A stretch of 64,000 nucleotides of DNA, taken from positions 1 to 64,000 of the IMG/VR virus record IMGVR_UViG_3300037246_001555. The stretch is one strand, 5' to 3'. The notes below the pieces were generated by a model. The model saw nothing but the letters and a program-made list of their open reading frames with translations. It had not been told where the DNA came from and ran no database searches. The stretch comes from a virus. Shown one piece after another: positions 1 to 54,864 of the stretch (position 1 is the first letter of the stretch; each line of letters starts with the position of its first letter). Made by a program: the position numbers and the translations under genes.

Positions 1-2
1 CG

Positions 3-446
3 CCTAGCTCTCTGATCAACGACTACGCAGCATTCATTGAACTGCCGGTTAAGACAATCGTGACTGTTCGTAATCCTCTTGACAACATTGCTTCGTGGCT
101 TAGGGGTAACAAGGCCCGGCGTATGTACCTTGATCGCGCTGATCGAGGTGAGAAGCTGATACGCCGATATCGCCGCTTCTACAAGAACGCCGTGGATATT
201 CTAGAGCAGGTAGACGACTATAAAGTGGTTCAGCACGAAAGGTTAGTTGATTCGCCGTCCGAGGTGATTCAGGAACTCGCCGACTGGTTAGGGCTACCTC
301 ACAACCGTCCGTGGCGCAGACAGTCGGCTAAGCGTATTTGGTCTGAGCCTAGGGAACGCCGCCACGAAGTCACCTATTCCGAAACCGAGCTGGATGAGAT
401 ACGTAGGATAATCAATACTATTCCATTGCTGGAGTACTATCGTTAG
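3..446 (+). CDS. Sulfotransferase-family protein, 5'-truncated by window edge
   Basis: Frame is open from base 3. TVRNPLDNIAS resembles the 3'-phosphate-binding RxPxD..S motif, followed by the V.HERLV..P...I..L..WLGL pattern typical of sulfotransferases. Confidence 0.65.
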   Translation, partial: PSSLINDYAAFIELPVKTIVTVRNPLDNIASWLRGNKARRMYLDRADRGEKLIRRYRRFYKNAVDILEQVDDYKVVQHERLVDSPSEVIQELADWLGLPHNRPWRRQSAKRIWSEPRERRHEVTYSETELDEIRRIINTIPLLEYYR

Positions 447-458
447 GGGGGTGAGTAA

Positions 459-1322
459 ATGGATGATTTGTATTTGCTACACCCCGTCGTCGGACTAGAG
501 AGCGCAGGATACTTGAGCGGCTCTAGGGAAGGCCCAGCTAAACTAGAAGACACTCGTCTTACTCTAGTTCACCCCTTTTACAACGAACGCGATAGATTCA
601 ACCGCCAGGTTAAGGTTTGGGCCGGATGGTCTGACTATGTGCGCTCCCGGGTGAAGATCGTCTTGGTAGACGACGGGTCTCCTGACCCGCTCCACACTTA
701 CATCACTCCTGAGGTAGAGAAGACCCTATCAGGCCTCAACTTTTCTATTCATAGGATTCGTAAGAATCTGAAGTGGAATACCCCAGGCGCGCTCAATTTA
801 GGGTTGACTGTGGCAACCACAGACTGGGTTCTGATTATGGATTCTGACTGCTCGTTTGATAACGACAATATGGAACGGCTACTTAAAGCTGATCCTGAAG
901 AGGGCGCTATTTACAAGTTTCCCAGACAGCAAGTAGGTATCAAGTCAGAGGACCTCTCCAACCAGAGGTACTTGACTTGTGCAATGCTGTTCCATAGATC
1001 TATATTTCTTGACGCCATTGGCGGGTTTGATGAGGATTTCACTGGGGAGTATTCTGGAGGTTATGCTTACTTCGATGTTGACCTTGATGATCGAGTACGT
1101 CGATCCCGCGCCATTCCGATATTCATCTGGAATCACGTAACCATCACGTATTGGATGCCCTCAATATGCGGGCTTGTAGCCCGCTCAGATGCCGACGAGC
1201 GTGTGAACCGTAAGTTGTTCTATGCCAAGCGAGAGGCACGAAGAGAAGAGCTTCAAGTACGGAATCCTACGGCAATTCTCAGGTTCAGGCACTGGAGGTC
1301 ATATCATCATGAGCGCACCTAG
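459..1322 (+). CDS. Glycosyltransferase, GT-A fold (GT2/GT7-like)
   Basis: IVLVDDGS, ALNLGL, LIMDSD (DxD) and IGGFDEDF..Y..FDVD motifs. Confidence 0.8.
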   Translation: MDDLYLLHPVVGLESAGYLSGSREGPAKLEDTRLTLVHPFYNERDRFNRQVKVWAGWSDYVRSRVKIVLVDDGSPDPLHTYITPEVEKTLSGLNFSIHRIRKNLKWNTPGALNLGLTVATTDWVLIMDSDCSFDNDNMERLLKADPEEGAIYKFPRQQVGIKSEDLSNQRYLTCAMLFHRSIFLDAIGGFDEDFTGEYSGGYAYFDVDLDDRVRRSRAIPIFIWNHVTITYWMPSICGLVARSDADERVNRKLFYAKREARREELQVRNPTAILRFRHWRSYHHERT

Positions 1323-1947
1323 TATGACTCGCCTCGGGGAGCTGAACTACTCAGACCGGGTCGAGCATGGCTACACCTATCTCTATGACGAGATCTTTGC
1401 ACCATACAGATACAAGGACACTCGGGTCTTGGAGATCGGTTATGCTCGTGGGCGCGGGACGCGCATGCTGGCGGAGTTCTTTCCGCGGGGCACAGTCCAT
1501 TCGTTTGACATTGAGCCCAACATGCAGCACTACGGAAACCTGACCAAGGAGTTGAAGAAGCGTATCAAGCTGTATAAGGGCGACCAGAGTGACCCGGAGA
1601 GCATTCAAGCCGTACTTCAGCAGGTTTATGACGGACCTAAGAACGCGGCGAAGAGGGGTTATCGCCAATTTGATTTGATTATCGACGACGGTAGTCATAG
1701 GCCGGAACATCAGCAGATCTCATTTGAGAAGTTATGGCCGGAAGTAGTGGCGGGAGGTCTTTACATCATCGAGGACTTTCATCCGTTCTATAAGGAGGGC
1801 CAGCACAAGACGGTGAGTTGGCTTTTCGATATGGTCCACAAGTTGAACAAGTGGGGACATAAGACCGATAGTCCTGAACTGACTGATACGGACTGGATCA
1901 TGTTTTCATACAACCAGGCAATCCTGAGGAAGGCGCCCAGTGAATAA
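1309..1947 (+). CDS. Class I SAM-dependent O-methyltransferase
   Basis: VLEIGYARG, GDQSD, FDLIIDDGSH and GGLYIIED motifs. Start placed at ATG 1309 after GGAGG. Confidence 0.8.
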   Translation: MSAPSMTRLGELNYSDRVEHGYTYLYDEIFAPYRYKDTRVLEIGYARGRGTRMLAEFFPRGTVHSFDIEPNMQHYGNLTKELKKRIKLYKGDQSDPESIQAVLQQVYDGPKNAAKRGYRQFDLIIDDGSHRPEHQQISFEKLWPEVVAGGLYIIEDFHPFYKEGQHKTVSWLFDMVHKLNKWGHKTDSPELTDTDWIMFSYNQAILRKAPSE

Positions 1948-2566
1948 GCATCTCTTGATCATGGGCTTCAGTCGTACAGGTACAACGTTTCTAGTATCGT
2001 TCTACCACCGTTTGGGTTTTGGCACTGGATTTGCGGACGAGTTCATTGACCGCATACAGCATGAAGATAACCAAAGTCATGGGGGCGTTGAGTTCTTTAG
2101 AGAACCAAATCTTCCTGCTGGAATGGATTTTGCTAAGGTTGAAGTGATTAAGCATCCTCTAGGCTACGGCGAGCCTCTTCCTTGGGATATCAAACGTTTC
2201 AACGAACAGTACGGCCGACCCGCAGACATCACCTTTTCACATCGGATATTGACTCGCCGAGACCCTGACTCCAGAACCAAGAGCAGTATCCGTAGAGTTA
2301 GGCTGAAGGAGCAACGCACCGGTCAGCGCGTTAAGTTACCTGCTCGTCTAGACTACGGCGCTCAATTGGAATTCTATGAGGAGAACAATTCCAAACTGAT
2401 TGAGTGGATGGGGGATTGTATTGAGGTGGAGTTTCCTAGAAGCGTACGAGATTTTGACTATCTGTGGCTCCGGTTGTATCCAACTCTCCACGGTAGGGTA
2501 TCTCGTGAGAAGGCTGAAGAGGTGTGGCGGGCTCTAGCCAACGATAACTACGTGACTTATGAGTAG
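1940..2566 (+). CDS. Sulfotransferase-like P-loop protein
   Basis: N-terminal LLIMGFSRTGTT (5'-PSB loop), then VIKHP and LTRRDP. Confidence 0.6.
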   Translation: MNKHLLIMGFSRTGTTFLVSFYHRLGFGTGFADEFIDRIQHEDNQSHGGVEFFREPNLPAGMDFAKVEVIKHPLGYGEPLPWDIKRFNEQYGRPADITFSHRILTRRDPDSRTKSSIRRVRLKEQRTGQRVKLPARLDYGAQLEFYEENNSKLIEWMGDCIEVEFPRSVRDFDYLWLRLYPTLHGRVSREKAEEVWRALANDNYVTYE

Positions 2567-3371
2567 TGTAGTGGGCGTGATGTGGTGTCGGAACGAGGGA
2601 GATCTCTTGCCTCACACCATCCCGGCAGCCCTAAAGAAGGTAGACTGTCTCATGATTGCAGACGATGACTCTACGGATAATAGCTGGGATGTGATCAAGT
2701 CGTTTGACCGTCAGTTGGAATACAAGGTCCGTAGGGCAGACAAGATCTCGGACACAGACTATACTCCAAGGGTCTTCTCCAGGCAGCACCTGCTTGATGA
2801 GGTTCGTCGTAGATTTGGTACGAAGGATGTCTGGGTGCAAATCATCGAGAGTGATACTGCGTTGCTGGACACTGATGTTCGAGAGGTCATTAGCAAGTAT
2901 GCAGTCGATGATATCTCTGTACGCTGGCATATGATCAATGCGTGTCGCCGTGTGTGGACTCCGGAATATGATGTGCCTCGAATTCCAGCCGGCATGCCGT
3001 TGCATGAATACTTTGATGCAGCTCACTGGATGGAGCAGATCAGTAGCTACACTTTCCGCCCTCTCCCTGAACTTCACTACACTGAACGCTTCGTGCCTTG
3101 GCCTCGGGGATGGAGTCACTATCTGAAGTCTGACCCTCCGTGGAAGTTGGTGAAGCATGATGACTCTCCGTTGATTGTTCACTACGGTTATCGAAGTCCT
3201 ACTTTCTATAGCGAGAAGATAGGGCCTTCTGGGGGCACTCCGAAGAAGAATGTGAGGAGTACTGTGCCGTTCTTTAACGGGGCCTACAACAACCACCCGG
3301 TTGACACGTTCTCACCTATCTCTCGTGAGGGATGGAAGGCGTGGCTCAAGGCGCGGGAGGAGGACAAATGA
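2559..3371 (+). CDS. Glycosyltransferase family 2-like (GT2_4 type)
   Basis: MWCRNEGDLL, IADDDSTDNS, and a C-terminal IVHYGY motif. Confidence 0.75.
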   Translation: MSSVVGVMWCRNEGDLLPHTIPAALKKVDCLMIADDDSTDNSWDVIKSFDRQLEYKVRRADKISDTDYTPRVFSRQHLLDEVRRRFGTKDVWVQIIESDTALLDTDVREVISKYAVDDISVRWHMINACRRVWTPEYDVPRIPAGMPLHEYFDAAHWMEQISSYTFRPLPELHYTERFVPWPRGWSHYLKSDPPWKLVKHDDSPLIVHYGYRSPTFYSEKIGPSGGTPKKNVRSTVPFFNGAYNNHPVDTFSPISREGWKAWLKAREEDK

Positions 3372-3739
3372 GCAGGATACCTAATGTCAATACTCTTGCT
3401 GATCTGATTGATCGTTTGGTCGTGGAGGTCAATAAACTCTCTTTCTTCGAAAATCGAAAGCGTGAGGAGCAGGGTAAGGAGATGCCCAATGCAGATCTAG
3501 TGGCAGAGTACGATAACCTTAGTCGAGATTGTTGTGAGCTGAGGTCAGCTTTGAAGAACGAGATTAACGGCCTTGTTACAGAGATAGTGGAGAGCGGTGA
3601 GTACAAGGTAATGCGTGAGCCCAGAACGTTCCGTCCTTCTCCCACTAAGATTGCTGATGTGATAGCTGAGATGTGCATGGAGCGTGCCCGTAGTCTCCAC
3701 AATGGAGAGTTGGTGGCTGCGCTTGAGGGAGAGCTATGA
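3368..3739 (+). CDS. Small helical protein of unknown function (DUF4254-like)
   Basis: TLADLIDRL..E..KL and R..LKNEIN pattern seen in small proteins of glycosyltransferase clusters. ATG 3368 follows GGAGG. Confidence 0.45.
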   Translation: MSRIPNVNTLADLIDRLVVEVNKLSFFENRKREEQGKEMPNADLVAEYDNLSRDCCELRSALKNEINGLVTEIVESGEYKVMREPRTFRPSPTKIADVIAEMCMERARSLHNGELVAALEGEL

Positions 3740-4557
3740 TAACTGAGGTAATCCAATTTTCCAATGAACTAGACTTGCTTGAGGCTCATCTAGAGCATCA
3801 TCGTCCTTGGGGCTGGAGGACCGTGATTGCTGAGTCGGACAGAACCGTCATGGGAACGCCTAAGGCTCTCTATTTCGAGGCGAACAAGGAGAGGTTTGAG
3901 CGGTTTGACGTGGAGTATCTTCAGATTCCGGGGGACATCTTTAAGCCCGCAGCAGGTTATAGGCAGTTCAGGGACAACGATTGGTTGAAGGAGAGGTGGA
4001 TGCACGAGAACTTCGATCCTAAGAATCCTTGGTTGATCTATGCAGACACAGATGAGATCATTACTGAGCAGCCCGCAGATTTTGAGGATGTGGACTACGT
4101 CAGCTTCGTAATAGATGAACGCACAGCCCAAGTGAATCGGCGTACTAGACACTGGCCTGAGGTTTACAGGCTTCATCGTTCTGATATAACGGTAGAACAG
4201 TTAGTGAATCCCAGATTACTGAGACGTAAGTGTCTTGGTCGAGGTTGGCATTTCATGAATTGCCCTTCGCGTCCGGAGGATATGCTCATCAAGGCCCAGT
4301 GCCGTCACTGGTATTTCAATGTACCGCGCCCTGAGGATGCCCCCGGCGTTGAGCACTTTAGATCCCTGTTCGGTCAGGACGTGGATTACATCACAGGCAA
4401 GAAGATAGAGAATTCACAGGTGGTGACTACCAGAGAGCTACCTAGGTGGATGCAGCAGAATCTTCATCTATTTCCGGTAGCTGCGAATCCAGTACCAGAT
4501 ACCGATATTCCGGGTAGGATCAAGAAGAACATTGAGTTGTTCGGACAGGAGGACTGA
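3736..4557 (+). CDS. Glycosyltransferase family 17-like (GlcNAc transferase)
   Basis: FSNELDLLE, VIAES..T..G.PK..YF, YADTDEI and GWHF, characteristic of GT17. Confidence 0.75.
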   Translation: MITEVIQFSNELDLLEAHLEHHRPWGWRTVIAESDRTVMGTPKALYFEANKERFERFDVEYLQIPGDIFKPAAGYRQFRDNDWLKERWMHENFDPKNPWLIYADTDEIITEQPADFEDVDYVSFVIDERTAQVNRRTRHWPEVYRLHRSDITVEQLVNPRLLRRKCLGRGWHFMNCPSRPEDMLIKAQCRHWYFNVPRPEDAPGVEHFRSLFGQDVDYITGKKIENSQVVTTRELPRWMQQNLHLFPVAANPVPDTDIPGRIKKNIELFGQED

Positions 4558-5310
4558 ATGAAGTTCGCCCACCGCCGCAAGGTTCTTGTTACGGGCCCCC
4601 CGTCGTCAGGCACGACAGCCATGACCCTTCTCCTTCACGCCTTGGGTATTGACGGAGGATTCAACGCAGACGAACTTTCCAGTAAGCAGATAGCGGTCAA
4701 GGGGAAGGGGCTTGAGTACATCACCGGGACGACCAGACGCCAACTCAGACAAGACAGAAACTCCGGACAGGACAATTCGCCTCGCTTAATAAAGAAGCCC
4801 ATTGTTCCCGTACATGAGAACAACGCTAGCAATGGAGCGATCCTTGGCGGTGCGACTACCGTTCTGGATAGAGTTCAGAACTTCGGATGGGAGATTGAGC
4901 ATGTGGTTGTGACGGTGAGGAAGTTCGAAGACTTTCTTGAGGCTGCACGACTACATGACACTCACACCCGAAGCCGGGTGAGGCTCAAGTTCGCAGATAC
5001 CAGGGAGACGGAGCGTTGGGTGGGGTACGGCTTCTATAGGACTATACAGCAGCTAGAGGCTGATGAGACTCCCTACTCAGTCGTAGAGTACCCGAAGTTC
5101 AGTGCAAACGCGAGGTATTGCTTTGATAAATTACAGCCTATGTTGACCTGTTCATTTGAAGAGTTCGAACGGGTACATTTTGAACTAATGAGTCCGGACA
5201 AGGCGCATGTAGTGGACGGCAAGGTTAACTCAGCAACGTGGTGGGCCGACGCATCGGGACTAAGCGCCCAGTATGGTCGAGACGGATTATCCAGTAAGGA
5301 AGGTGATTGA
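4558..5310 (+). CDS. Sulfotransferase-like P-loop protein
   Basis: VLVTGPPSSGTT, LIKKP, VVVTVRK. Similar layout to ORF 1940-2566. Confidence 0.55.
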   Translation: MKFAHRRKVLVTGPPSSGTTAMTLLLHALGIDGGFNADELSSKQIAVKGKGLEYITGTTRRQLRQDRNSGQDNSPRLIKKPIVPVHENNASNGAILGGATTVLDRVQNFGWEIEHVVVTVRKFEDFLEAARLHDTHTRSRVRLKFADTRETERWVGYGFYRTIQQLEADETPYSVVEYPKFSANARYCFDKLQPMLTCSFEEFERVHFELMSPDKAHVVDGKVNSATWWADASGLSAQYGRDGLSSKEGD

Positions 5311-5311
5311 G

Positions 5312-6337
5312 ATGAAGGTACTTATTACTGGAGGCTGTGGCATGATAGGGTTCCATGCTGCGAAGTACTACATGGAACGAGGTCATCATGTTGATGTCAT
5401 GGACAACCTTGAGCGGTCGAAACTATTGGGGCATGAGGTGAGTATTCGTCGCGCTCATTTCAACAAGAATCTTTTGAATGATTGGGATGTGGGCGTCTCG
5501 GTCTATGATGTTTCCAAACGGGAGAGTTTTGACTGCTTGTCTGGTCATGATGTGATTATCCACATGGCAGGTCAATGCGGTGTGCCCACCAGCATCGAAA
5601 ATCCTCGTCGGGATTTTGAAGTGAACACTTTAGGCACCCTCAACGTGTTGGAGTATGCTAGGAAGTGTGGGGCTACGGTGGTGCTGGCCTCTACCAACAA
5701 GGTTTACCCGTTGCACGATGAGTTTAAGAAGGTTGGCGACCGATGGCAGTTCGACCAGACACCCTGGGCAGAGAACGGGTTCCCTGAGACTGCCTTCCTT
5801 ATAGGCGCGCGTACGCCTTACGGGAACAGTAAGTACATGGCCGATCTCCTATGCCAGGAGTACGCTCACACTTACGGTGTCCGAACGGGAGTATTCCGTA
5901 TGTCTTGCATATACGGCCCCAACCAGTTCGGCTTTGAGGAGCAAGGCTGGGCCACATGGTTCATCATTGCCACCTTGAAGGGCTGGCCGATTACGATCTA
6001 CGGCGATGGCGATCAGGTGAGGGATATGTTGTATGTAGAGGACGCCATTAAGGCGTATGACGCCTTTGTACAGTCAGATGTGTCTCATGGGGTGTGGAAC
6101 CTGGGCGGCGGCCCTAGTAACACCTTGACGTTGAAGGAGCATCTCGATTACGTAGAGGGGTTGACCGGAGCACGCTCTCCGGTGACGTACGAGGATTGGA
6201 GACCGCTGGACCAGAAATGTTACGTCAGCGACCTCTGGAGGATGGACCGCGATCTGAAATGGGCTCCCAAGGTAGACACCTTAGCAGGACTGAAGCTCAC
6301 TACAGACTGGGTATCTGAGAATCTGGATGTCTTCTGA
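5312..6337 (+). CDS. NAD-dependent NDP-sugar epimerase (CDP-paratose/tyvelose 2-epimerase-like)
   Basis: ITGGCGMIG Rossmann motif, STNKVY, YGNSK (YxxxK), RMSCIYGP.QFG.E.QGW. Confidence 0.85.
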   Translation: MKVLITGGCGMIGFHAAKYYMERGHHVDVMDNLERSKLLGHEVSIRRAHFNKNLLNDWDVGVSVYDVSKRESFDCLSGHDVIIHMAGQCGVPTSIENPRRDFEVNTLGTLNVLEYARKCGATVVLASTNKVYPLHDEFKKVGDRWQFDQTPWAENGFPETAFLIGARTPYGNSKYMADLLCQEYAHTYGVRTGVFRMSCIYGPNQFGFEEQGWATWFIIATLKGWPITIYGDGDQVRDMLYVEDAIKAYDAFVQSDVSHGVWNLGGGPSNTLTLKEHLDYVEGLTGARSPVTYEDWRPLDQKCYVSDLWRMDRDLKWAPKVDTLAGLKLTTDWVSENLDVF

Positions 6338-6927
6338 TGCGAGTAAGAGATGATGATGTATTTCTCATCGGTCATGGGTACGACACACCTGAGAAGGTAG
6401 TCGCTCGTTTCAAGGAAGTCCATATGGTCATTGCTGATGGGGGCGCTCTTCACGTCGCAGCTATTCTGTGCGGTACCCTCCCTCAGTACCCTACCGGGAT
6501 TGAGTTTTTGAAGGAAAGGATAGAGGCCGGTGAGTTGATTCCTGAGATTCACGGATGGGAGCACGTCAGTTATGGACCTCTGACGAAGCAGGAGATAGTG
6601 GATAACTTGAACCGGTGTATCACCACTATCAACGAGACATTCGATTATCAGCCCACGACGTTCTATACCCCGTGGGGTTCAGACAACGCTCACATCAGAG
6701 AAGCTGCGGATACAGTAGGACTGAAGATGGTAGACTGCTCAGAGGTGGTGTATCCGAAGCGGAAGTTCTTCGGGGGGAAGGCGTGGGAGGCCTATAGCCA
6801 CAACATCAGGCAAGAAACGAGTGAGCTGTTTATTCATTGGTGGGAGGATCGGTGGTTAAATCTAGATAGTCACAGCCTAGTTAAGACGTTGAGGACGGTG
6901 CGGGAGAACCGCAACGCTTTTATGTAA
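6337..6927 (+). CDS. Polysaccharide deacetylase-like (CE4/NodB) protein
   Basis: RDDD, EIHGWEH and FYTPW motifs. Confidence 0.7.
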   Translation: MRVRDDDVFLIGHGYDTPEKVVARFKEVHMVIADGGALHVAAILCGTLPQYPTGIEFLKERIEAGELIPEIHGWEHVSYGPLTKQEIVDNLNRCITTINETFDYQPTTFYTPWGSDNAHIREAADTVGLKMVDCSEVVYPKRKFFGGKAWEAYSHNIRQETSELFIHWWEDRWLNLDSHSLVKTLRTVRENRNAFM

Positions 6928-6940
6928 GGGGGCGATTGAG

Positions 6941-7888
6941 ATGAAGGTACTCATTACAGGAGTTCTGGGGGTCATTGGGAGCAAACTTGAAGAGGTTTTG
7001 AAGGCTCGCGGGCATGATGTGTTCGGAGTTGATCTCTTCCACACGAACAGGCCCTACGGACATGGATTAGGCCTGGTGGATAATGAAGACTATTTCCGCT
7101 GCGATATCAGTGAGTACCGACAGATAGAGCGGGTCATTGAGCATGTAGAGCCTCATGTGGTCTATAATTGCGCCGCTGAGTTTGGACGCTGGAATGGTGA
7201 GCACTTCTACGAGAAGGTTTGGACTTCCAACGTGATCGGCATGAAGCACATAATCCGGCTTCAAGAAAAGCACGGGTTCAAGCTCGTACACTGCTCTTCT
7301 TCGGAGGTCTATGGTGACTATTCAAATGTGATGTATGAGGATGTGTTGGAGCAAACGCCCATCATACAGATGAGCGATTACGCGATGAGTAAGAGAGTCA
7401 ACGAGATGCAGATCCATAACTCTCAGGAGCAGTTCAACACCTATACTGTAGTGGTTAGGTTCTTCAACACTTACGGCCCGGGGGAATGGTATCATCCTTT
7501 CCGGAGCGTGAACTGTGTGTTCACTTACAATCTCTTACACGGAAGGCCCATCACGGTCTTTAACGGTCATACACGCACTAGCACATATGTCTACGATAGC
7601 GCGAGAACCCTTGCGAACATCTTGGACAATTTCATTAGTGGTGAGACGTACAACATCGCCTCTAATCAGACGCATACTATTGAAGATCTGGCTGCTCTTT
7701 TGGTTAAATACACCAAAGCAGACCCCTCGTTAGTGGCGTATAAGGATCATGGAGAGGTTCTTACGACAAAGCACAAGTATGTTGACGTGTCAAAGTCCAT
7801 CGCCGACTTAGGCCACGAGGACACTGTTTCTCTTGAAGAGGGCGTACTTGCCACGGTTAAGTGGATGAAAGAGTACTACGCATGCTAG
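6941..7888 (+). CDS. NAD-dependent NDP-sugar epimerase/dehydratase
   Basis: ITGVLGVIG, SSSEVYGD, YAMSK, RFFNTYGPGE. Confidence 0.85.
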   Translation: MKVLITGVLGVIGSKLEEVLKARGHDVFGVDLFHTNRPYGHGLGLVDNEDYFRCDISEYRQIERVIEHVEPHVVYNCAAEFGRWNGEHFYEKVWTSNVIGMKHIIRLQEKHGFKLVHCSSSEVYGDYSNVMYEDVLEQTPIIQMSDYAMSKRVNEMQIHNSQEQFNTYTVVVRFFNTYGPGEWYHPFRSVNCVFTYNLLHGRPITVFNGHTRTSTYVYDSARTLANILDNFISGETYNIASNQTHTIEDLAALLVKYTKADPSLVAYKDHGEVLTTKHKYVDVSKSIADLGHEDTVSLEEGVLATVKWMKEYYAC

Positions 7889-8664
7889 CAAGACTCAACG
7901 CCCATAATCAGCGTGGGCGAGATAGCTTTGGAGTCAATTTCGAAGAATTGTAGAACGTGGTCTAAATCTAGCCCTTTCTGAGGGTTTGATCTTTTGGAGC
8001 GGGGCAATCTTAGTGCATTAGCGATGTTCTTCTCATGAATTATCTGTACCCACTTAGGTTCCTCGGTGAAGATGGTGTGCTTTCGGAGATCTGATCTGCC
8101 GTGTAGGAAGTCTAGTATGGTGGTTTCGGGGTGCTTGATGATATTGAATGGCGCTATATCCCAGGTATAACCCGCCCAGAAATCGGTAAACACTCGATAC
8201 TTGATTCCATGAGAGAATGTTATCTCCCCACCAAAATCTACAGCCTTAGCCGACTCAATGAAGTCTTTTGAGATAGCATCATCAGTGTCCAGATTAACGG
8301 AGTCTACCCCCCGTATCGCGGCCTCAATATCCCAAACCGCGGGTTTGATTTCAACCTTATCTAGCTTACTTAGTTCATCAAGGAACCACTTCGGACTACG
8401 AGGGTGTACGATGTTTACCCATCGAAAATCCTGATCGGTCTGTGCGAGGACGCTAGGGTGTGTGAAGGTTTTGAATAGCTTCAGCCTGTTAGTAAGCCAT
8501 GAGTCGTAGAACCTATATCTCCACATTTTTCGTTCGTAGTCCTCTCGCCGATCAGTGCTCATATATCGAAGGCTATGCTGATGGCAATTCCAGCGGGAGT
8601 ATACTATCACGGCTTTTGGAAAGTCCTGATACGGTCTACGTGAAATCCCGTCATCTCTTCCCAC
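7885..8664 (-). CDS. Putative glycosyltransferase (rhamnosyltransferase-like)
   Basis: RLKLFKTFTHPSVLAQTDQDFRW, NLDTDDAI, and W.QIIH..N motifs. Confidence 0.65.
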   Translation of the reverse strand: MGRDDGISRRPYQDFPKAVIVYSRWNCHQHSLRYMSTDRREDYERKMWRYRFYDSWLTNRLKLFKTFTHPSVLAQTDQDFRWVNIVHPRSPKWFLDELSKLDKVEIKPAVWDIEAAIRGVDSVNLDTDDAISKDFIESAKAVDFGGEITFSHGIKYRVFTDFWAGYTWDIAPFNIIKHPETTILDFLHGRSDLRKHTIFTEEPKWVQIIHEKNIANALRLPRSKRSNPQKGLDLDHVLQFFEIDSKAISPTLIMGVESC

Positions 8665-9227
8665 ACGCCCGCCGCGGTCTCCTCAACGGCGCGGTGACTG
8701 AAGTCTTGGTTGGTATCGTGGAATGCGATCCACCCTCCCGATTTCACCATAGGTGCCCACGTATTGAAGTCCTTCTTTACGGCCTCGTAGGTGTGATCGG
8801 CGTCAATGAACACGAAGTTGAACTTGCGGTCCTCTAGTTTCTTAGCCCACGTATCTGTGCTGCCTGGGCATAGTTCGATCCACTTATCTACATTGAACTT
8901 GTCCATCTGGTAGTGAGCATCTCGCTGCTTGGCGTTCGTAGGGAATAGATCTACTGAGTAGATCTTGGCGTTGAGACCGTTTTCTCGCACACAATCAGCC
9001 ATCAAAATAGCTGACCCTCCCCGAGAATGGCCCAGATTGGCGTAGTCGCCGTCACCATGCAGCGCGGGGACGTCGTGAATGAAGCGCATCTCCGCATCAC
9101 TCAAAAGTGCTACATGCTTCAGCCGAGTCCAGATACGGTTCTTGGACTCGTTCTGGTAGTCTCCCCCTGTGGGGTGCCTTCTTGGATTCAGCTCATGGCT
9201 TCTATGTGATCTGTCTTCAGTAACCAT
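8607..9227 (-). CDS. Class I SAM-dependent methyltransferase (Methyltransf_24-like)
   Basis: LGHSRGGSA, FVFIDADHTYEAV, GGWIAFHD. Confidence 0.8.
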   Translation of the reverse strand: MVTEDRSHRSHELNPRRHPTGGDYQNESKNRIWTRLKHVALLSDAEMRFIHDVPALHGDGDYANLGHSRGGSAILMADCVRENGLNAKIYSVDLFPTNAKQRDAHYQMDKFNVDKWIELCPGSTDTWAKKLEDRKFNFVFIDADHTYEAVKKDFNTWAPMVKSGGWIAFHDTNQDFSHRAVEETAAGVWEEMTGFHVDRIRTFQKP

Positions 9228-9237: not shown

Positions 9238-11496
9238 CTATGCTTCGTTTCCGTAATGCCCTCGCCAGCCTGAACCCGGGACTCCTTGACTGTTCTTACC
9301 TCGTAGAACCTGCTGCCAGGCTTCCCTAGCGGACCCTGGCTCCCTTCTACTCAACCCCAATTCCTTCCTCTCACGATCTCTAAGAGCCGCTTCGAATTGC
9401 TCTTTCTCTAATGCCCAAGGGTCAGCAGCAGAGCGTGATGCACTTGACTTAGGTAGATTTACTTGCTGCGAGCAGATCATCCAAATTGCCAAGTACCAAG
9501 CGTCCAATACGTGATCCCCACGGAATGGGTCACTCACCAACCAGCCCTTTTTGTCTCCAGACTTGGACTCTCGTTCCCTATTCTCGGCCACGTCAAGGCA
9601 CTGTCGGACCTGATCATGGATCAGATATGAGCCCGGGGATTCATCTTCGGCCGTAAACGGAAAGTCCAGCAGATGGAAAAATAGATGGTTGTAGCGGGCC
9701 ATGTTGTTGATGAATTCCTGATTCTCTCGTCTCCAGTTCTCACCAAGCTTCGCCATGTTCTTGTGTCTTAGTTGGACGTCCATAGGCCAGGGCTGACCCT
9801 CATCAGCCAACTCTGTGAAGATTTGGTTTAGCATTGGAGCCTCGTCGGTGATGGTATACAGCCAACGATCCGGGTCCCCTCCCAAGGCTTCAATCCAGCG
9901 AGGAACCCGTGAGCGTAGAATGACCAAGTTCTTCTTCATAGTAGTGCGCTCATCGGAGTTGAAGTACTCCCACACAGTCACGATGTCATTGCCGTCGTAT
10001 GCTATGAGGCACCCGCCGAAGTTCCTTGGTCCCTGATCAATGCCTAGTATGAAGACGGCTCTGTCGAAGAAGTCGTCTTCAATCATGCGGAGGTGGTCAT
10101 CCCGTACTAGGCCGAACTTGGCGCCTTCCGCGGATACACCTATGCCCTCGAACTCCGAGGCGTACTCCTCGTCAGTAAGCTCCATCCGTGCCGCGTCCAA
10201 CTCGGACTTCACGAATTCAGGGTTGTCTTGGGGGTCTAGTCGAGTGACTAGCATGGAAACGTTCCAAGGGCATCCATTTGCAATCAGACGTTGATCCCGC
10301 TTCCAGCGAATCATCCTGCCCGTCTTAGGGTCGCGACCGTGCATGTTGGTCAGACGCCCTATGAATCCCGCTACGCCCTTAGGCGTACCTAGGGCGACGA
10401 TACGACCTAGACGCTCTGACATACGAGCACGAAGCTCCTCGTAGATGTCAGCAGGCAGCCATCCAGGCTCCGCGCACAGTGCGAATTCCAAGGCATGCCC
10501 GGTAATCGAGCCCTTGGATTTTGCTGACTTGACCCGGATCTCTGAGCCCCACTTCGTTGTCATGATCATTTCGCCGGTCTTCTTGTCGTGGACTACGTTG
10601 ACCATCTGCTTGTAGTAGGGGAAGAAGAGGGCGTTGAGGAAGTTCTTGATGTACTCTACCTCCTTGGAAGCCCGGTCGTAGGTCTCCGCTAGAATCCAGA
10701 TTTCAACCCCAGGCAAACAGATAGCCATAGTGGCTATCAGCCCGAGTAAGTAAGACTTACCAGCACGCGCGGCACCTTCGCCTACGACATGGCGTTCTGG
10801 CGCGCATAGAATACGAACTTGTCCTGCGTGGGGGGTACGGCGCGGATCGCACCGTTTGATGATTTCCATTTGACGGTCAAAGCGCCGCGGAATCTTTGTG
10901 GTGCCCTTGGTTGCGCCCGTCTTATCTCGCCAGTCGGCTAGCCTTGAGTTGCGAATGTCCGCAAGAGCGAAGGAGCTGTGGCAAGCCGGGCAGTGAGCCG
11001 TTTGATACCGCCAAGCCAGGTCGATCCACTTGTAGATCAGGTTCACGTCCTTGCCTGGATCGTGAAGCTTTTTGAGCATCTTGATGGCGTTGAAGCGGTC
11101 AGCAGCCTTGGCCTTGGGGTTGTCTCTTAGCTTCTCTAGAACTTTGAAGGCGTACTCTCGGAGATCTCCCTTGTGCATCTCTCCGAAGTCAACGCGCATT
11201 GACTCCTTGGCCTTCTCCTCAGCCAAAGCTCTATCAGTGTGTTTCTGTATCTCAGCCTTGATACGAGGTGCTCGGGCTAGATTCCTAGCATTATCGTTCT
11301 CTTTGGAGCCAGGCTCAGACGCCCAGCCGAGCGCTATCCTTGAAGCCTCGACGCCTCCCATGCCGGTGTCAGCAATCAGCTTAGCGAAGTGTATTTCTTT
11401 AGGGCTACAGCGCTTTCGGTACCCCGTGTTACCGGCCTTTATGGGGTCGGGCTTAGTCCCCTTCGGGGAGCCAGTACCCTGAGTCTTCTTGCTCAT
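9238..11496 (-). CDS. terL: Terminase large subunit with long N-terminal extension
   Basis: Walker A (GAARAGKS), RVKSA, coupling motif ALGTPKG, EYASEF, RNase H-like ILGIDQG and GDHVLDA. ATG 11496 follows AGGAGGAG. Confidence 0.8.
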   Translation of the reverse strand: MSKKTQGTGSPKGTKPDPIKAGNTGYRKRCSPKEIHFAKLIADTGMGGVEASRIALGWASEPGSKENDNARNLARAPRIKAEIQKHTDRALAEEKAKESMRVDFGEMHKGDLREYAFKVLEKLRDNPKAKAADRFNAIKMLKKLHDPGKDVNLIYKWIDLAWRYQTAHCPACHSSFALADIRNSRLADWRDKTGATKGTTKIPRRFDRQMEIIKRCDPRRTPHAGQVRILCAPERHVVGEGAARAGKSYLLGLIATMAICLPGVEIWILAETYDRASKEVEYIKNFLNALFFPYYKQMVNVVHDKKTGEMIMTTKWGSEIRVKSAKSKGSITGHALEFALCAEPGWLPADIYEELRARMSERLGRIVALGTPKGVAGFIGRLTNMHGRDPKTGRMIRWKRDQRLIANGCPWNVSMLVTRLDPQDNPEFVKSELDAARMELTDEEYASEFEGIGVSAEGAKFGLVRDDHLRMIEDDFFDRAVFILGIDQGPRNFGGCLIAYDGNDIVTVWEYFNSDERTTMKKNLVILRSRVPRWIEALGGDPDRWLYTITDEAPMLNQIFTELADEGQPWPMDVQLRHKNMAKLGENWRRENQEFINNMARYNHLFFHLLDFPFTAEDESPGSYLIHDQVRQCLDVAENRERESKSGDKKGWLVSDPFRGDHVLDAWYLAIWMICSQQVNLPKSSASRSAADPWALEKEQFEAALRDRERKELGLSRREPGSAREAWQQVLRGKNSQGVPGSGWRGHYGNEA

Positions 11497-11656
11497 CGTC
11501 CTCCTCCTGTTTGTCCCAAGGGCATCCCGGCCGCTCCGGTGTAGTAGTCGCAAGGGCTTTTTCGAGCGCCTCGATTACTCGTTCGTCAGGGCTAGCGTCT
11601 TGCTTAGGGACCCAAGCGCTCAATTCTTGAAGTGCGCGGGATAGTTTATCACTCAA
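11453..11656 (-). CDS. Hypothetical protein
   Basis: Short acidic ORF overlapping both neighbours in operon fashion. Confidence 0.45.
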   Translation of the reverse strand: MSDKLSRALQELSAWVPKQDASPDERVIEALEKALATTTPERPGCPWDKQEEDDEQEDSGYWLPEGD

Positions 11657-13878: not shown

Positions 13879-14697
13879 TTACTTGACGATACGTTTCACT
13901 TCTGGAAGGAAATCGAGCGCCACCACATCTTCAGACGTTAGGTTCCAGTAGATCTCTAGAGTGGTTACGACACTGCTGTGCCCTAGCCAGGAGGCAACCT
14001 GCTTTGGATTGACCCCGCTGGTCAGGGCTAGTGAGGCGAATGTGTGGCGCAGATCGTGGAATCGGATTGGCTGTATGTGGGCATATGAACATAGTCGTCG
14101 GAGCGCGGGGTTCGGGTCGAATTGTTCAAACACTTTCTCGGAGGGTTTACGTAGAAGGAAGTTTCTAGCTTCTGCAAGTGACCGGGATAGTTCTGCGCTC
14201 ATCGGAACGAGTCTGCTCCGTCCGCTTTTAGTGGGCCCGTCATACGAGTGAGAGATTTTGATCTTTCCTTGGAGCATGTCGATATCTCCACATCGAAGGC
14301 CGAAGATCTCCCCCCTACGTAGACCGGCGTGCATAGCCAGAAGCATTACAGGGTAGAATTTGGGGTTCAGCTTTCGGGTGACTTCCATTAGGCTGCCTGC
14401 CTGTTTGACGCTCAAGGACGTCACTTCCTTTTGCTGCTCGCTCCGGCTGAGCGCGCGTATGAATCTCTGAGTGTCCACCTTTGGTCCGCCCTTGAATTCT
14501 ATGTAACGTCCCAGCAAGCGGATCAGCGTCTTTAGCGTGTTCCTAGATAGCCCTTCTCCTTCCCATATAGTCAAAATACTCCGTGTGGCGTCATCATTCC
14601 ACCCATCCCAGGGAGTTCCAGCAATATGACGCCTGTACAGGCTCTGGTATGTTTTGATCGTGTTTGGTCGTCCGTAGAACGTGTCTTCAAAGTCCAT
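13879..14697 (-). CDS. Tyrosine recombinase/integrase
   Basis: GLRRGE (R), PTKSG (K), FHDLRH (HxxR), LGHSS and EIY catalytic residues. Confidence 0.9.
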   Translation of the reverse strand: MDFEDTFYGRPNTIKTYQSLYRRHIAGTPWDGWNDDATRSILTIWEGEGLSRNTLKTLIRLLGRYIEFKGGPKVDTQRFIRALSRSEQQKEVTSLSVKQAGSLMEVTRKLNPKFYPVMLLAMHAGLRRGEIFGLRCGDIDMLQGKIKISHSYDGPTKSGRSRLVPMSAELSRSLAEARNFLLRKPSEKVFEQFDPNPALRRLCSYAHIQPIRFHDLRHTFASLALTSGVNPKQVASWLGHSSVVTTLEIYWNLTSEDVVALDFLPEVKRIVK

Positions 14698-20320: not shown

Positions 20321-20356
20321 CGATTCGAGTTAATCAATTAGCTTGATCAAACAAAC

Positions 20357-20375
20357 GAACGGCATTATTTACTAG
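20357..20375 (+). promoter_or_regulatory. Conserved phage promoter-like motif, copy 4
   Basis: GAACGGCATTATTTACTAG, intergenic. Confidence 0.75.
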
Positions 20376-49396: not shown

Positions 49397-49656
49397 TGCG
49401 TCGGGGTTGGCTGATAGCCGCCCTATTGCTGCTCTTGGTGACGATAGGTGCAGAACATGCACATCATAGAAGTGGACATCAGTACGACAGGTGGCGTGAA
49501 TATCGGGGTATAATCGACTGCGTTGACCTCGACTGGGTTATCTTTGTCTTCGAGGAGCGTGTGAACGGCGACGAGTACGACAGTCTAACTATACAAATAC
49601 ACCAGAAGCTCGATAAACTTCGGGAGCTTAGGCGCGGTCTTTGTCGGGACGTCTAA
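49396..49656 (+). CDS. Small protein with N-terminal signal/TM helix
   Basis: MRRGWLIAALLLLLVTIGA. Confidence 0.45.
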   Translation: MRRGWLIAALLLLLVTIGAEHAHHRSGHQYDRWREYRGIIDCVDLDWVIFVFEERVNGDEYDSLTIQIHQKLDKLRELRRGLCRDV

Positions 49657-50390
49657 CCCCAGAGCGCCTCTAGTGCCGGGCACACAGGGAAGTCTTCAAT
49701 CCGCTCGCGCAATGCGGGCAACTCCTTCAACAAATCCAGATCAATCAGTTCGCCGGGGTGGTAGGAGCGCTTAGCCTTCCTGCTGATGCGCCGAGTTGCG
49801 TCCTCCTCCTTGGGGGAGCGTAGGGCGTTGTGCATGTGCCAGCAGGTGATATCAGGGAACCATAGCTCCGACTTCTCGTTCTGTTTGTAACCGGACCGCT
49901 CGCCCGGATGAGTGCCCGACCAGAAGGCATCTCGGGTATACAGGCGGTGGTGGCTGCGACGCCGGTCGTATTGCTTCGTTAGAGCCTCGTTCACCTCCAC
50001 CCGCTTGAATACTCCAAACTTGTACGTCTCCTCCACCATCATGTAGTGATGTTGAAGATCATCGGCGGCACCACTTATCTTGCCTAGATCCTCGGGAGTA
50101 TAAAGCTCATCACCGTCGAGAATGAAGTAGATGTCCCTGCGGCCTTCGGCGATCATGCTGTTCCGGAACGCCCCCTGGACCTCCGGCTCCACGTGAGGCA
50201 TCTTCCGAACGAACAAGTCGGCCTTCCCGTCCATGCGAGCTGTAAACCAGTCGATGATGTCGCGAGTGTTATCTGTGCTTCCAACGTCGTAGATAACGTA
50301 GGAGTCGAAGAAGCCCTCAGTCTGCTTTAGAACATAGGGCAGAAAATACTCCTCGTTTTTCACGAGTACCATTACGCTAGGGTTGCTCAT
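49653..50390 (-). CDS. Glycosyltransferase family 2-like
   Basis: VKNEEYFL, YDVGSTDNT, FILDGDE. Confidence 0.8.
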   Translation of the reverse strand: MSNPSVMVLVKNEEYFLPYVLKQTEGFFDSYVIYDVGSTDNTRDIIDWFTARMDGKADLFVRKMPHVEPEVQGAFRNSMIAEGRRDIYFILDGDELYTPEDLGKISGAADDLQHHYMMVEETYKFGVFKRVEVNEALTKQYDRRRSHHRLYTRDAFWSGTHPGERSGYKQNEKSELWFPDITCWHMHNALRSPKEEDATRRISRKAKRSYHPGELIDLDLLKELPALRERIEDFPVCPALEALWG

Positions 50391-50728
50391 AGATGTCTCA
50401 CGTCAACGGGGATGCCGTCATCTGCGAAGTCACAGACGATATCTATATCGTTTTTAACGGAGGGTGAATTAGACCATAGGATGAGTGCGCGGTCGATCTT
50501 AGACCCTTCGACATGAAACTTGACACTAAGATCGACAACCTCCCAACCCAGCTCCCGGGCGATAGTGACCGCTGCGGCTTCAACTCCTTGGTGTCCGCTG
50601 TGGAGTAGGGTGTGAGAGGGAGGATTCGCTGCGGTTCCTATCATTCTATACCCTCGGATCAGGTGTTGCAGTTTATCGAACTCTTTCCCGGTCACCCAGT
50701 CGGGCGGGCCTGTTACGTAAAGTCTCAT
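50387..50728 (-). CDS. Possible SLOG/YspA-like nucleotide-binding protein
   Basis: LYVTGP.DW, LLHSGHQGVEAAA...A.ELG. Confidence 0.4.
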   Translation of the reverse strand: MRLYVTGPPDWVTGKEFDKLQHLIRGYRMIGTAANPPSHTLLHSGHQGVEAAAVTIARELGWEVVDLSVKFHVEGSKIDRALILWSNSPSVKNDIDIVCDFADDGIPVDVRHL

Positions 50729-51621
50729 GATTGTACGACCTCCAAGATTTGATCAACTCGATTTTCCACTAGGTGGTGTTGCTTTACCTCAAGGTAAGCG
50801 CTCGCCGCAATCACGTTAGCTGCGTTGGGATTATCCATTACCCACCGCATTGCCACTTCAAGTCCCGCGTGGGAATACGCATGATAAGGGATGAAATGCA
50901 CTCCCGGCCGGAATAGCTTTTCCGTGCCGGAGCGGGCATCTATGTCATTTATCAGCGGCTTCATCATGAGCATTGACTCCACTACCCTGAGATTGGGGCC
51001 ATCGTGCTTCTGACAGTGATTAAAGAGGTGCCGGCACTGAGCCATAGCTTCTGCTGTCTGCGGCCAACGATGTTTGATCCCGGGACCCACTTGTCGTGCT
51101 TCGACCGTCCAACCGTTGTTTTTGGCTATCTCAACCATTGGATTTGCCCTTGAGAGCCCGCCTTTTGAGCCGAAAAAACCGAAGTCGAACGCCTCTTTTT
51201 CGCATGTTTCCGCGTATTGCTTCCCATCGAACCATTTCAGGTCCGTGAAGTTGGGACACCAATGAGCACTGGAATGTCCCGCGAACAAGTCCCTCTTGTC
51301 CCAGACCGCGTAGAATACATGGTCGTAGTTCTTGCCTACTCGATGGTGTACCGTAGGCCAGCCATGCGAGTCGATGAACATCACGGCGCTGGGAACAGGC
51401 AGCTTCCCCTCCTGAGCTTGCCACAGCAGCTCCCCCTTCTCGTTACGGCCACAGTCGATGTCGAGCACTAAGTCAACTCCGTCGTAGTTGGCTTCAATAC
51501 TCTTGGGGGCGTCCACCACCTCATGGCCCTTCTCGCGGAGGACTCGCACAATAGACCCCGAGTAGGTGTCCACCCGTTTGTTTGATCTAGTTATCCAGTT
51601 CCGCGTGACCATGATGTTCAT
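50725..51621 (-). CDS. Glycosyltransferase, GT-B (CgeB-like)
   Basis: FDFGFFGS, FN....DGPNLRVVESM, F.PGVHF, IA...Y..V...H....RV. Confidence 0.75.
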   Translation of the reverse strand: MNIMVTRNWITRSNKRVDTYSGSIVRVLREKGHEVVDAPKSIEANYDGVDLVLDIDCGRNEKGELLWQAQEGKLPVPSAVMFIDSHGWPTVHHRVGKNYDHVFYAVWDKRDLFAGHSSAHWCPNFTDLKWFDGKQYAETCEKEAFDFGFFGSKGGLSRANPMVEIAKNNGWTVEARQVGPGIKHRWPQTAEAMAQCRHLFNHCQKHDGPNLRVVESMLMMKPLINDIDARSGTEKLFRPGVHFIPYHAYSHAGLEVAMRWVMDNPNAANVIAASAYLEVKQHHLVENRVDQILEVVQS

Positions 51622-51989
51622 TGCTGGCTCTTCGCCTTCTTTCTGAGTGCTGCGACGGCGGCTCTTTCCCTACCTAGTTGGTTCCAGTTGATATAGCCGC
51701 TTTCAGTCATCATCGCTCCAATCGACCGCCTCTTCAAACGGAGAATTTTGTCGTATTCACGTATGATTTTGCTTCCTACTAGATCAACCCTGGCGATTTC
51801 TTTCTTTAGTTTGGCTTGTGTGTTTTCTAGGTCCTTCTCCATTACTGAAAGCCGGTTACGCTCCTTGCGCTCTAGTTTTAGCTGTGCGCGTAGGTTAGCG
51901 AGTTCCTCCTTGAAGTCCTTGCGAACCGCCTTTTTGGCCTCCTTGAAGACGCTTGCCATGATCATATCAGAACCTGTTGTCGTTGCCAT
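51618..51989 (-). CDS. Basic coiled-coil protein
   Basis: Operon overlap with neighbours. Confidence 0.5.
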   Translation of the reverse strand: MATTTGSDMIMASVFKEAKKAVRKDFKEELANLRAQLKLERKERNRLSVMEKDLENTQAKLKKEIARVDLVGSKIIREYDKILRLKRRSIGAMMTESGYINWNQLGRERAAVAALRKKAKSQQ

Positions 51990-52684
51990 TACTTGCTCCC
52001 TTCTCTAAATCCTTGTTCGAACGCTTGTGCTCTTTTGAGGGCGTACTCTGGCGTCCTCGTAGCGTGTTTGAGCTTTGCTAGTGCTCCCTTATATCCCTTC
52101 CTGTACCTACGTCGTACCTTTCTAGCCCGACGAAGTGCCATGCCCCGCTTCAGGCTGGAAAGGCGGTCAATGAAGCAGAACCCCATCAGGTGATCCATTT
52201 CGTGCTGAATCACAATCGCCTCATAGCCTTCGAACCACTCGTGGTGTGCTTCACCTTCGAAATCCAACCACTCCAGCTCCAGCTTATCCAGCCGCCGTAC
52301 GGGGTTCCGGTAACCGTAGGGGAAGGACAGGCAACCCTCGCCCGGCCACTGGAGCTGTTGGGCTCCCTGACCAATGTCAGTGATCCTCGGATTGAGAAAC
52401 ACGCGGGGCGTCTTTGAGGCGTCCTCTTCCGTCCACTTGGTATCCATGACAAAGATCTGGAAGGGGATGCCTGTTTGTTGTGCTGCAAGGCCGACACCGT
52501 GGTGCTTGTACATTGCCTGGATCATGGCTTCGGCCGTATCACGAACCAGCTCGGTGCCCAGGCCCTCCTCAGGGAATGGCGCAACCGGCATCTTCAGGGT
52601 CTCGTCAGGCCAGATAACCAGCCTCAGCTCAGGCTTCTCTTCTTCCGCCTCAGGTGCGGGAGTGTTAGGGTCAGGTTCAGTCAT
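51989..52684 (-). CDS. def: Peptide deformylase
   Basis: All three PDF motifs: GVGLAAQQ, EGCLS, QHEMDHL. Confidence 0.95.
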   Translation of the reverse strand: MTEPDPNTPAPEAEEEKPELRLVIWPDETLKMPVAPFPEEGLGTELVRDTAEAMIQAMYKHHGVGLAAQQTGIPFQIFVMDTKWTEEDASKTPRVFLNPRITDIGQGAQQLQWPGEGCLSFPYGYRNPVRRLDKLELEWLDFEGEAHHEWFEGYEAIVIQHEMDHLMGFCFIDRLSSLKRGMALRRARKVRRRYRKGYKGALAKLKHATRTPEYALKRAQAFEQGFREGSK

Positions 52685-53471: not shown

Positions 53472-53481
53472 GTTGTTCTCC

Positions 53482-54461: not shown

Positions 54462-54462
54462 G

Positions 54463-54861: not shown

Positions 54862-54864
54862 GAC

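Follow-up and report, generated by a model that had tools for sequence, protein, structure and literature searches.

The window analysed here is the 64,000-nucleotide stretch covering bases 1-64000 of the 87,489-bp linear IMG/VR viral record IMGVR_UViG_3300037246_001555 (G0, written G000 in coordinates; CheckV completeness 73%). At its start, 13 consecutive open reading frames (ORFs), g1-g13, occupy positions 3-9227 next to the gene for the large terminase, TerL. We are confident that these genes are a genuine phage-borne glycan-tailoring cassette. We further propose, tentatively and with a little less than even confidence in the statement as a whole, that the cassette builds a tailored glycan on virion proteins. 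The gene inventory agrees with that of an earlier, sequence-only reading of this DNA: three sulfotransferase-like proteins, four glycosyltransferase (GT)-like proteins, two methyltransferases, two short-chain dehydrogenase/reductase (SDR) enzymes, one CE4 deacetylase and one small helical protein (Table 1).

The genes g1-g11 lie on the + strand, and neighbours overlap or are separated by at most 13 nt. On the - strand, g13 and g12 continue the terminase operon downstream of TerL. The ATG of g13 is located 10 nt past the TerL stop (9238) and is preceded by GGAGG. The two arms of the cassette are convergent, with a 4-nt overlap between g11 and g12. The G+C content of the cassette is 0.50-0.51, compared with 0.51-0.58 across most of the window. 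Nine of the 13 ORFs score above the curated Pfam cut-offs, two fall below (g5 and g8) and two have no match (g4 and g6).

Table 1 Features of the cassette, its surroundings and the second glycosyltransferase cluster in the window.
Feature	Position	Strand	Basis or remark
g1, predicted sulfotransferase, family A, C-terminal 147 aa only	3..446	+	5' end cut by contig end
g2, GT2-family (GT-A fold) glycosyltransferase	459..1322	+	Glycos_transf_2 53.4 bits
g3, S-adenosylmethionine (SAM) methyltransferase (Methyltransf_24/FtsJ-like)	1222..1947	+	Methyltransf_24 36.7 bits
g4, divergent, predicted sulfotransferase-fold protein, family B	1940..2566	+	fold model; no Pfam match
g5, GT-A glycosyltransferase, Glyco_tranf_2_4 type	2559..3371	+	homologues pass Glyco_tranf_2_4
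g6, small protein without Pfam or PHROG match	3332..3739	+	travels with g5-type GT
g7, GT17-like glycosyltransferase	3736..4557	+	Glyco_transf_17 35.1 bits, cut-off 26
g8, predicted sulfotransferase-fold protein, family B	4558..5310	+	fold model; Sulfotransfer_1 16 bits, below cut-off of 22
g9, SDR nucleoside diphosphate (NDP)-hexose epimerase	5273..6337	+	Epimerase 151 bits
g10, CE4 (NodB-type) polysaccharide deacetylase	6337..6927	+	Polysacc_deac_1 33.5 bits
g11, SDR NDP-sugar enzyme, dTDP-glucose 4,6-dehydratase-related	6941..7888	+	Epimerase 135, RmlD_sub_bind 76 bits
g12, PF11316 putative rhamnosyltransferase-like GT	7885..8664	-	Rhamno_transf 60.9 bits
g13, sugar O-methyltransferase-like	8607..9227	-	Methyltransf_24 79.9, RMNT_CmcI 35.5 bits
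TerL, large terminase, heads operon running into g13 and g12	9238..11553	-	Terminase_6N 24.7 bits; phrog_2 E 1e-25
Tyrosine recombinase	13879..14697	-	Phage_integrase 77 bits
Second GT cluster: GT2, Glyco_trans_1_2, GT2, 1035-aa GT2+GT4 fusion	49653..57972	-	interleaved with def, HNH and RF-1-domain genes

The first gene, g1, lacks about 96 N-terminal residues; what is left matches residues 97-242 of a full-length, 242-aa homologue at 50% identity, encoded on the 3.6-kb contig L086. The order on this contig is a GT17-like paralogue of g7, the full-length family-A sulfotransferase, and homologues of g2 (74% identity) and g3 (78%). Given the truncation of g1 and the extra GT17-like gene upstream, 13 genes is a lower bound, and the G0 cassette probably continues beyond base 1. 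In metagenome scans for relatives, the g2 query returned nothing and the g3 alignment returned two short contigs, one of them L086.

Related phage records place the cassette within a phage lineage. Searches for relatives yielded 2 loci with TerL, 25 with an alignment of the major capsid protein (MCP) and 31 with an alignment of g9. The records G001 (44 kb) and G002 (51.5 kb) encode TerL and MCP that are 73-74% and 93-94% identical to those of G0, and both carry glycan genes directly behind TerL; the G002 cassette is internal, with 5 kb more DNA beyond it. G003 (119,599 bp) has direct terminal repeats (DTR) and is rated 100% complete. Its cassette of 14 genes (16000-26202) lies on the TerL strand, all junctions overlapping or measuring at most 9 nt. 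TerL borders it at one end; small genes, a tyrosine recombinase and the portal gene border it at the other. This homologous cassette inside a complete phage genome settles a doubt raised in the earlier reading, that the genes could be host chromosome flanking a prophage, in favour of phage DNA. A 119,592-bp contig inside a metagenome-assembled genome (MAG), G008, contains TerL, a family-A sulfotransferase overlapping it by 4 nt, and then a run of co-directional genes that includes rhamnosyltransferase-like, GT17-like, family-B, GT2, FkbM methyltransferase and TOD1/MUCI70-like genes. The contig begins as well as ends within virion genes, indicating a permuted phage genome without host flank. 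Despite their almost equal length, G008 and G003 share no nucleotide similarity. The last gene of the G008 cassette encodes a dCMP/cytidine deaminase (73 bits; L081, G008:C263:95632-96075), and after it comes a weak GDSL-like hydrolase.

Conservation in related phage contigs is thereby borne out: glycan genes lie behind TerL in six of the seven records examined (G0, G001, G002, G003, G008 and L053; not G005). The distance from TerL to the first glycan gene is 10 nt in G0 and 0 nt in G001; elsewhere the two overlap, by 22 nt in G003 and by 4 nt in both G002 and G008. The cassettes of G0, G001, G002, G003 and G008 share common gene classes and differ in gene order and content. G005 has no cassette behind TerL and carries two methyltransferases 2-3 kb upstream. 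In L049, L050 and L069, g9-type genes are found 3.5-5 kb from the MCP gene instead. The variable content, the gap in G005 and the MCP-side copies indicate an accessory cassette of mosaic make-up that can move within the late region. With g1 cut in G0 and the g3 homologue cut in G001 (L009:1-432), the contigs of both records end within the cassette, which suggests that strain-level hypervariability fragments the assemblies. The TerL of G005 is 1063 aa long, with homology to G0 TerL in two blocks, and its portal ORF measures 1176 aa compared with 737 aa in G0 (L044 and L045, C1:8704-11895 and 21294-24824); both proteins likely carry insertions, possibly inteins or homing elements. Ten of the best 120 g9 homologues are located on contigs of 115-130 kb (P0009, P0012, P0029, P0052, P0054, P0083, P0091, P0092, P0101 and P0118), suggesting that public data hold many more complete relatives.

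The MCP, g4, g12 and family A were searched against 50,697 GenBank phage records without a match; this route therefore gives neither a cultured relative nor a host. The only match among the species genomes scanned was the phage-only 119.6-kb contig, in a MAG titled 'Deltaproteobacteria bacterium', which is not evidence of the host; no integrated copy was found in these genomes. Sampled words of positions 1-9227 occur in two public marine-sediment metagenome DNA runs, at shares of 0.92 and 0.07; the first run may represent the source sample, and the small share in the second gives no indication of habitat.

Most of the enzymes can be assigned by family. A g2 homologue is present in G003 (42% identity) in addition to that on L086. 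The g3 homologue alignment starts at residue 28, and from the sequence the true start of g3 probably lies near 1303-1309. The GT2 match of g5 stays below the cut-off (20.7 vs 23.3 bits). Its homologues in G002 and G003, with 24-37% identity, pass Glyco_tranf_2_4 (33.8 and 29.7 bits, cut-off 27.5), and the homologue in G001 is 69% identical. The small g6 protein directly follows a g5-type GT in G0, G001, G003 and L052, and in L069 its neighbour is a GT2. It may serve the adjacent glycosyltransferase as a subunit or adaptor. Homologues were also found for g7 in G008 and for g12 in G002 (48% identity), the latter after the sulfotransferase behind TerL. An alternative in-frame ATG of g12 at 8562 would give a protein of 225 aa.

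The closest PDB structures to g9 are those of CDP-tyvelose 2-epimerase (9rl0, E 9e-54; 1orr, E 5e-48). Among its best 120 homologues listed, all rows that carry a JGI name read CDP-paratose 2-epimerase. Assignment of g9 as a dehydratase was rejected, as the RmlB equivalog scores 137 bits against a cut-off of 365 and the closest structure is the tyvelose epimerase. The true g9 start is probably at 5312. For g11, the closest PDB entries (8w3u/9ar1, E 3e-87) are described as 'dTDP-glucose 4,6-dehydratase related protein'. The Asp-Asp and His-x-x-x-His residues of g10, which we take to be the NodB metal-binding and catalytic motifs, are invariant in four of four phage homologues. Outside the window, the same record (L083) contains a second, weaker CE4 paralogue (21.7 bits, below the cut-off; G000:C1:84016-84669) and a patatin-like phospholipase (102 bits; G000:C1:85887-86807).

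Three sulfotransferase-like families are present in the lineage. Family A comprises g1 and its homologues in G001, G002, G008 and L086, family B comprises g4, g8 and five homologues, and the third is a Sulfotransfer_4 member in G003 (117 bits). A Sulfotransfer_3 match is seen in G002 (32 bits); this protein and the G003 one are unambiguous sulfotransferases. The Pfam matches of g1 are narrowly above the cut-offs (Sulfotransfer_3, 27.8 vs 27; Sulfotransfer_1, 24.7 vs 22). Single-sequence phmmer searches of the PDB gave nothing significant for g4, g8 or a full-length family-A homologue, and neither did a 7-sequence family-B profile, for which the best hit (E 0.86) was the P-loop of a tyrosylprotein sulfotransferase. 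Comparison of families A and B by hhalign returned a probability of 8%, so homology between them is not established.

We modelled g4 and g8 with AlphaFold from 7- and 8-sequence alignments, obtaining pLDDT values of 73 for g4 and 62 for g8. The Foldseek lists for both models interleave nucleoside monophosphate (NMP) kinases with sulfotransferases, and thus do not separate the folds. After re-ranking with VIA-align, sulfotransferases make up 50 of the top 50 structures for g4 and 47 of 50 for g8. It was this re-ranking, and not Foldseek by itself, that favoured sulfotransferases over the kinase fold which the earlier reading had named as the competing assignment.

Sulfotransferases bind the 5'-phosphosulfate with a loop of the form K/R-x-G-T/S-T, which lacks the Walker A lysine, and the 3'-phosphate with an R-x-P...S motif. 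The N-terminal loops of g4 and g8 read x-G-T-T, without the Walker A lysine. In g4 the two motifs are SRTGTT and RRDPDSRTKS. The truncated g1 retains RNPLDNIAS (R-N-P-x-D-x-x-x-S), presumably the 3'-phosphate-binding motif, and its full-length homologue on L086 has GRSGHT. In g8 the loop is PSSGTT, without the basic residue (Lys/Arg), and the motif Ser is also missing; the protein may therefore be inactive or have a divergent or altered function. Taken together, g1, g4 and g8 are predicted to adopt the sulfotransferase fold, with activity probable in g1 and g4 and uncertain in g8. In the ESM Atlas, g4 and g8 fall among mostly viral clusters, several of which carry a sulfotransferase Pfam annotation on 10-92% of members, and this serves as a lead only. 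A family-B gene is also located in an insertion of about 10 kb in the head module of G002 (L006, G002:C1:8157-18405), beside proteins of 958 and 979 aa without Pfam match.

To define what these phages do not encode, we searched five records, including G0 and the complete G003. Sugar-1-phosphate nucleotidyltransferases (PF00483) were found in none of the five, with controls positive in 14 of 14 genomes, and adenosine 5'-phosphosulfate (APS) kinase was also found in none. No ORF of G0, G001, G002, G003 or G005 has four or more hydrophobic 19-residue segments in a simple Kyte-Doolittle scan, which is not a trained predictor of polytopic membrane proteins. The enzymes must therefore draw on NDP-sugars, SAM and 3'-phosphoadenosine 5'-phosphosulfate (PAPS) of the host, and there is no export route of the phage's own. 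The earlier suggestion that the phage makes its own unusual sugars thus has to be narrowed, as the phage only remodels NDP-sugars supplied by the host.

On this basis we propose that soluble cytoplasmic enzymes, wired into the terminase operon, would edit host nucleotide-sugars and then build and tailor an oligosaccharide. The tyvelose-2-epimerase-like g9 and the RmlB-related g11 would convert host NDP-hexoses into rarer sugars. The four GT-A enzymes g2, g5, g7 and g12 may place a short glycan on the acceptor, from which g10 would strip N-acetyl groups, exposing amines. Methylation could be carried out by g3 and g13 using SAM, and sulfate from host PAPS would be added by g1 and g4, and perhaps by g8. 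These steps are all assigned from family membership. The acceptor is proposed to be the phage's own virion proteins. A virion acceptor is favoured by the coupling to TerL or position near the MCP, the solubility of the enzymes, the absence of an integrated copy from the genomes scanned and the precedent of particle glycosylation in other phages. The association with virion genes extends from the cassettes behind TerL to the MCP-side copies in L049, L050 and L069 and the head-module sulfotransferase gene of G002.

The window contains a second GT cluster, which is kept in all four records covering the region (G0, G001, G003 and G005) with 35-73% identity. The variable cassette may diversify a glycan whose backbone is laid by this cluster. 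It is conceivable, if on balance unlikely, that glycosylation of the virion is two-tiered, with the conserved cluster laying the backbone and the swapped, TerL-coupled cassette adding deoxy sugars, free amines, methyl ethers and sulfate esters in a pattern specific to the lineage. Interspersed with the GTs of the second cluster, at 50387-54861, are genes for a peptide deformylase (135 bits), a 132-aa protein with an RF-1 domain and an HNH-AP2 endonuclease.

Several observations weigh against a sulfated virion glycan. The phage is uncultured and the proposal was reached from its genes. In G005 the virion genes are kept without a TerL-linked cassette, which indicates that the cassette is dispensable for particle assembly. 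We tested the patterns [ST]GS, [ST]GxT, [ST]G[ST], Nx[ST], [ST]3 and TxTxT in structural versus other proteins of G0 and G003 with 100 shuffles, and none was enriched (all z ≤ 2.7, the top value being that of T-x-T-x-T before multiple-testing correction). An open tripeptide scan of the virion proteins returned only Gly/Ala-rich words. In the GenBank phage search (tblastn, E ≤ 1e-3), the three cassette proteins used as queries, g4, g12 and a family-A sulfotransferase, were without match, leaving these three with no link to the proven mycobacteriophage enzymes. Morons that act on the host also typically sit in late or packaging operons. The tyrosine recombinase, with homologues in G001, G002, G003, G005 and G008, is 2.5-5 kb from the cassette in every relative, which fits lysogenic conversion as well. 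No RNA run is among the public runs matching words of 1-9227. With regard to sulfation, Foldseek gave no match at E ≤ 0.001 for the g4 and g8 models, with adenylate kinase as the top entry for both, and the residues missing from g8 are those regarded as catalytic.

Remodelling of the host surface is a possible alternative to a virion acceptor, although we consider it the less probable of the two. The enzymes would tailor lipid-linked precursors of O-antigen, capsule, exopolysaccharide (EPS) or S-layer at the cytoplasmic face, adding branches, methyl groups and sulfate and removing acetyl groups, and the host flippase and polymerase would export the product, resulting in a superinfection block or a change of serotype. 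This is the published reading of the nearest gene sets, namely the lipopolysaccharide ('LPS') clusters of P-SSM2 (PMC1079782) and those of jumbo cyanophages (PMC7824862), at least in the available text of these papers. The mosaic, fast-turning content resembles host O-antigen and capsule loci, the recombinase is always close by, the slightly lower G+C fits acquired genes, and the missing phage transporter is compatible with host export. However, no Gtr-type or other polytopic membrane component was found in five of five records, and the genes, being coupled to TerL in translation, do not form a separate unit expressed in lysogeny. No integrated copy was found, the single genome match being a phage-only contig, and some relatives carry glycan genes inside the head module.

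A soluble oligosaccharide or glycolipid unconnected to virion and envelope, or glycosylation of host proteins, is improbable. All of the enzymes are soluble, and the combination of GT2, CE4, methyltransferase and sulfotransferase would suit such a product. The set echoes the tailoring of rhizobial Nod factors. Iyer et al. discuss secondary metabolism as a possible role of a second cyanophage cluster (PMC7824862, in the text available). Against this, no acyltransferase, exporter or processive GT2 of the chitin-synthase type with membrane domains was seen, and no phage precedent is known.

Hypermodification of DNA, in which the GTs and tailoring enzymes would decorate a modified base at replication or packaging as a defence against restriction, is marginally less probable still. 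The linkage to a packaging gene is consistent with it, and phage GTs that hypermodify DNA with diverse glycans have been published (Pyle et al. 2024, as cited in the available text of PMC12619734). However, a hydroxymethylase of the thymidylate-synthase family (PF00303) was found in none of the five records, of which G0 is 73% complete, with controls positive in 10 of 14 genomes. Tet/JBP (PF12851) was also found in none of the five, which is uninformative since no control was positive either. The replication module has an ordinary make-up in its ten largest ORFs (SbcCD, RecA-like, gp32-like, PolA, DnaB, helicase), and the CE4, rhamnosyl-O-methyltransferase-like and GT17-like proteins belong to families of the polysaccharide type.

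An artefact, either prophage-flanking host chromosome or a chimeric assembly of the contig end, is hardly credible: the cassette does sit at the very start of an incomplete linear contig, with g1 cut and a slightly lower G+C, but homologous cassettes are found inside the complete G003, inside G002 and inside the phage-only contig G008, the 10-nt spacing between TerL and g13 has a common ribosome-binding-site context, and a single public marine-sediment run holds 0.92 of the sampled 1-9227 words.

The earlier reading called a pathway of this kind poorly described for bacteriophages, which overstates the case. P-SSM2 was reported in 2005 to have two clusters with 24 'LPS'-type genes in all (Sullivan et al. 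2005, PMC1079782), and mosaic multi-GT clusters with O-methyltransferases in jumbo cyanophages were reviewed in 2021 (Iyer et al. 2021, PMC7824862). As far as the available text of these papers goes, the cyanophage 'LPS' or capsule clusters have at least 10 genes and combine several GT families with NDP-sugar epimerases or dehydratases and O-methyltransferases, occur twice per genome, are sporadic or polymorphic in content between relatives and have a putative function. With four GT-like, two SDR and two methyltransferase genes in 9.2 kb, plus a second cluster, the G0 cassette is of this type. It differs in belonging to another lineage, the G0 MCP having no match in GenBank phages. It also lacks nucleotidyltransferase and phosphosugar enzymes, whereas Iyer et al. 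describe sugar activation with the cluster, and it adds three sulfotransferase-fold genes, a CE4 deacetylase and direct translational coupling to TerL. The main text of PMC7824862 does not contain the word 'sulfotransferase'; the supplements of PMC7824862 and PMC1079782 may list such genes in cyanophage clusters.

Mycobacteriophages glycosylate their own capsid and tail-tube proteins with their own GTs (PMC12363180, PMC12619734). As described in the accessible text for Che8, Corndog and Myrna (Freeman et al. 2023), these systems resemble the cassette in their soluble, phage-encoded GTs and in the location of glycan genes among late or structural genes. They use few GTs, two of them named as essential, in contrast to the at least 13 genes here, which include sulfotransferases, CE4 and SDR enzymes. 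The mycobacteriophage glycan has also been demonstrated, whereas the present one is predicted from genes, with no C-terminal or motif signature found. The fibril-glycan clusters of Megavirinae (Notaro et al. 2022, PMC10117803) likewise combine nucleotide-sugar and GT genes with clade-specific content; they contain 6-33 genes, and their product is proven to coat the particle, according to the text available. These eukaryotic giant viruses encode complete de novo nucleotide-sugar pathways, unlike the late NDP-sugar editing seen here, and sulfation is not a stated feature of the clusters in the abstract of that paper.

The cassette shares with temperate-phage O-antigen conversion (GtrABC, O-acetyltransferases) the presence of glycan-altering phage genes close to an integrase. 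Gtr systems consist of one to three genes, include polytopic membrane proteins and are expressed from the prophage. In contrast, the present cassette has 13 genes, with no polytopic membrane protein in the five records. Temperate-phage LPS genes are cited in PMC1079782, in the part available. Single phage genes of the Sulfotransfer_3 type are described for OM43 phage metagenomic viral genomes (MVGs) and Synechococcus phage S-SRM01, with a function called unclear in the accessible text of PMC10580990. Unlike these single genes, three sulfotransferase-fold genes of two families are located here inside a glycan cassette, a context that provides a plausible class of substrate for the sulfotransferases. 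Literature searches, whose scope did not extend to subscription journals and supplementary files, turned up neither a phage sulfotransferase that has been characterised nor a sulfated glycan of a phage. The kind of cassette is thus already known; what is distinct is the sulfotransferase load, the CE4 deacetylase and the fixed position, coupled to TerL, in an uncultured lineage of about 120 kb.

Other features of the genome bear on the type of phage. An 850-aa protein encoded at 39014-41566 matches the PHROG family 'internal virion protein', and the next gene (41633-42151) is acetyltransferase-like. The earlier description of the phage as podovirus-like holds to the extent of this one match; no other support for a podovirus-type ejection apparatus was seen. 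A family-A DNA polymerase with an N-terminal domain of the uracil-DNA-glycosylase superfamily (62 bits) is encoded outside the window (L082, G000:C1:75224-77932).

Twenty years after phage glycan clusters became known, almost none has an identified product, and virion glycosylation is proven in only a few actinophages. In the present cassette, three genes of the sulfotransferase fold have a clear glycan context. The fixed, packaging-linked slot with swapped contents, together with a complete reference genome, makes culture-free experiments possible. A product on the host would bring sulfation into the range of serotype conversion. If it is on the particle, phages would diversify their own surfaces with charged glycans. 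Should the two-tier arrangement hold, the particles would carry a variable, negatively charged 'serotype', the first case of a bacteriophage making a sulfated glycoconjugate.

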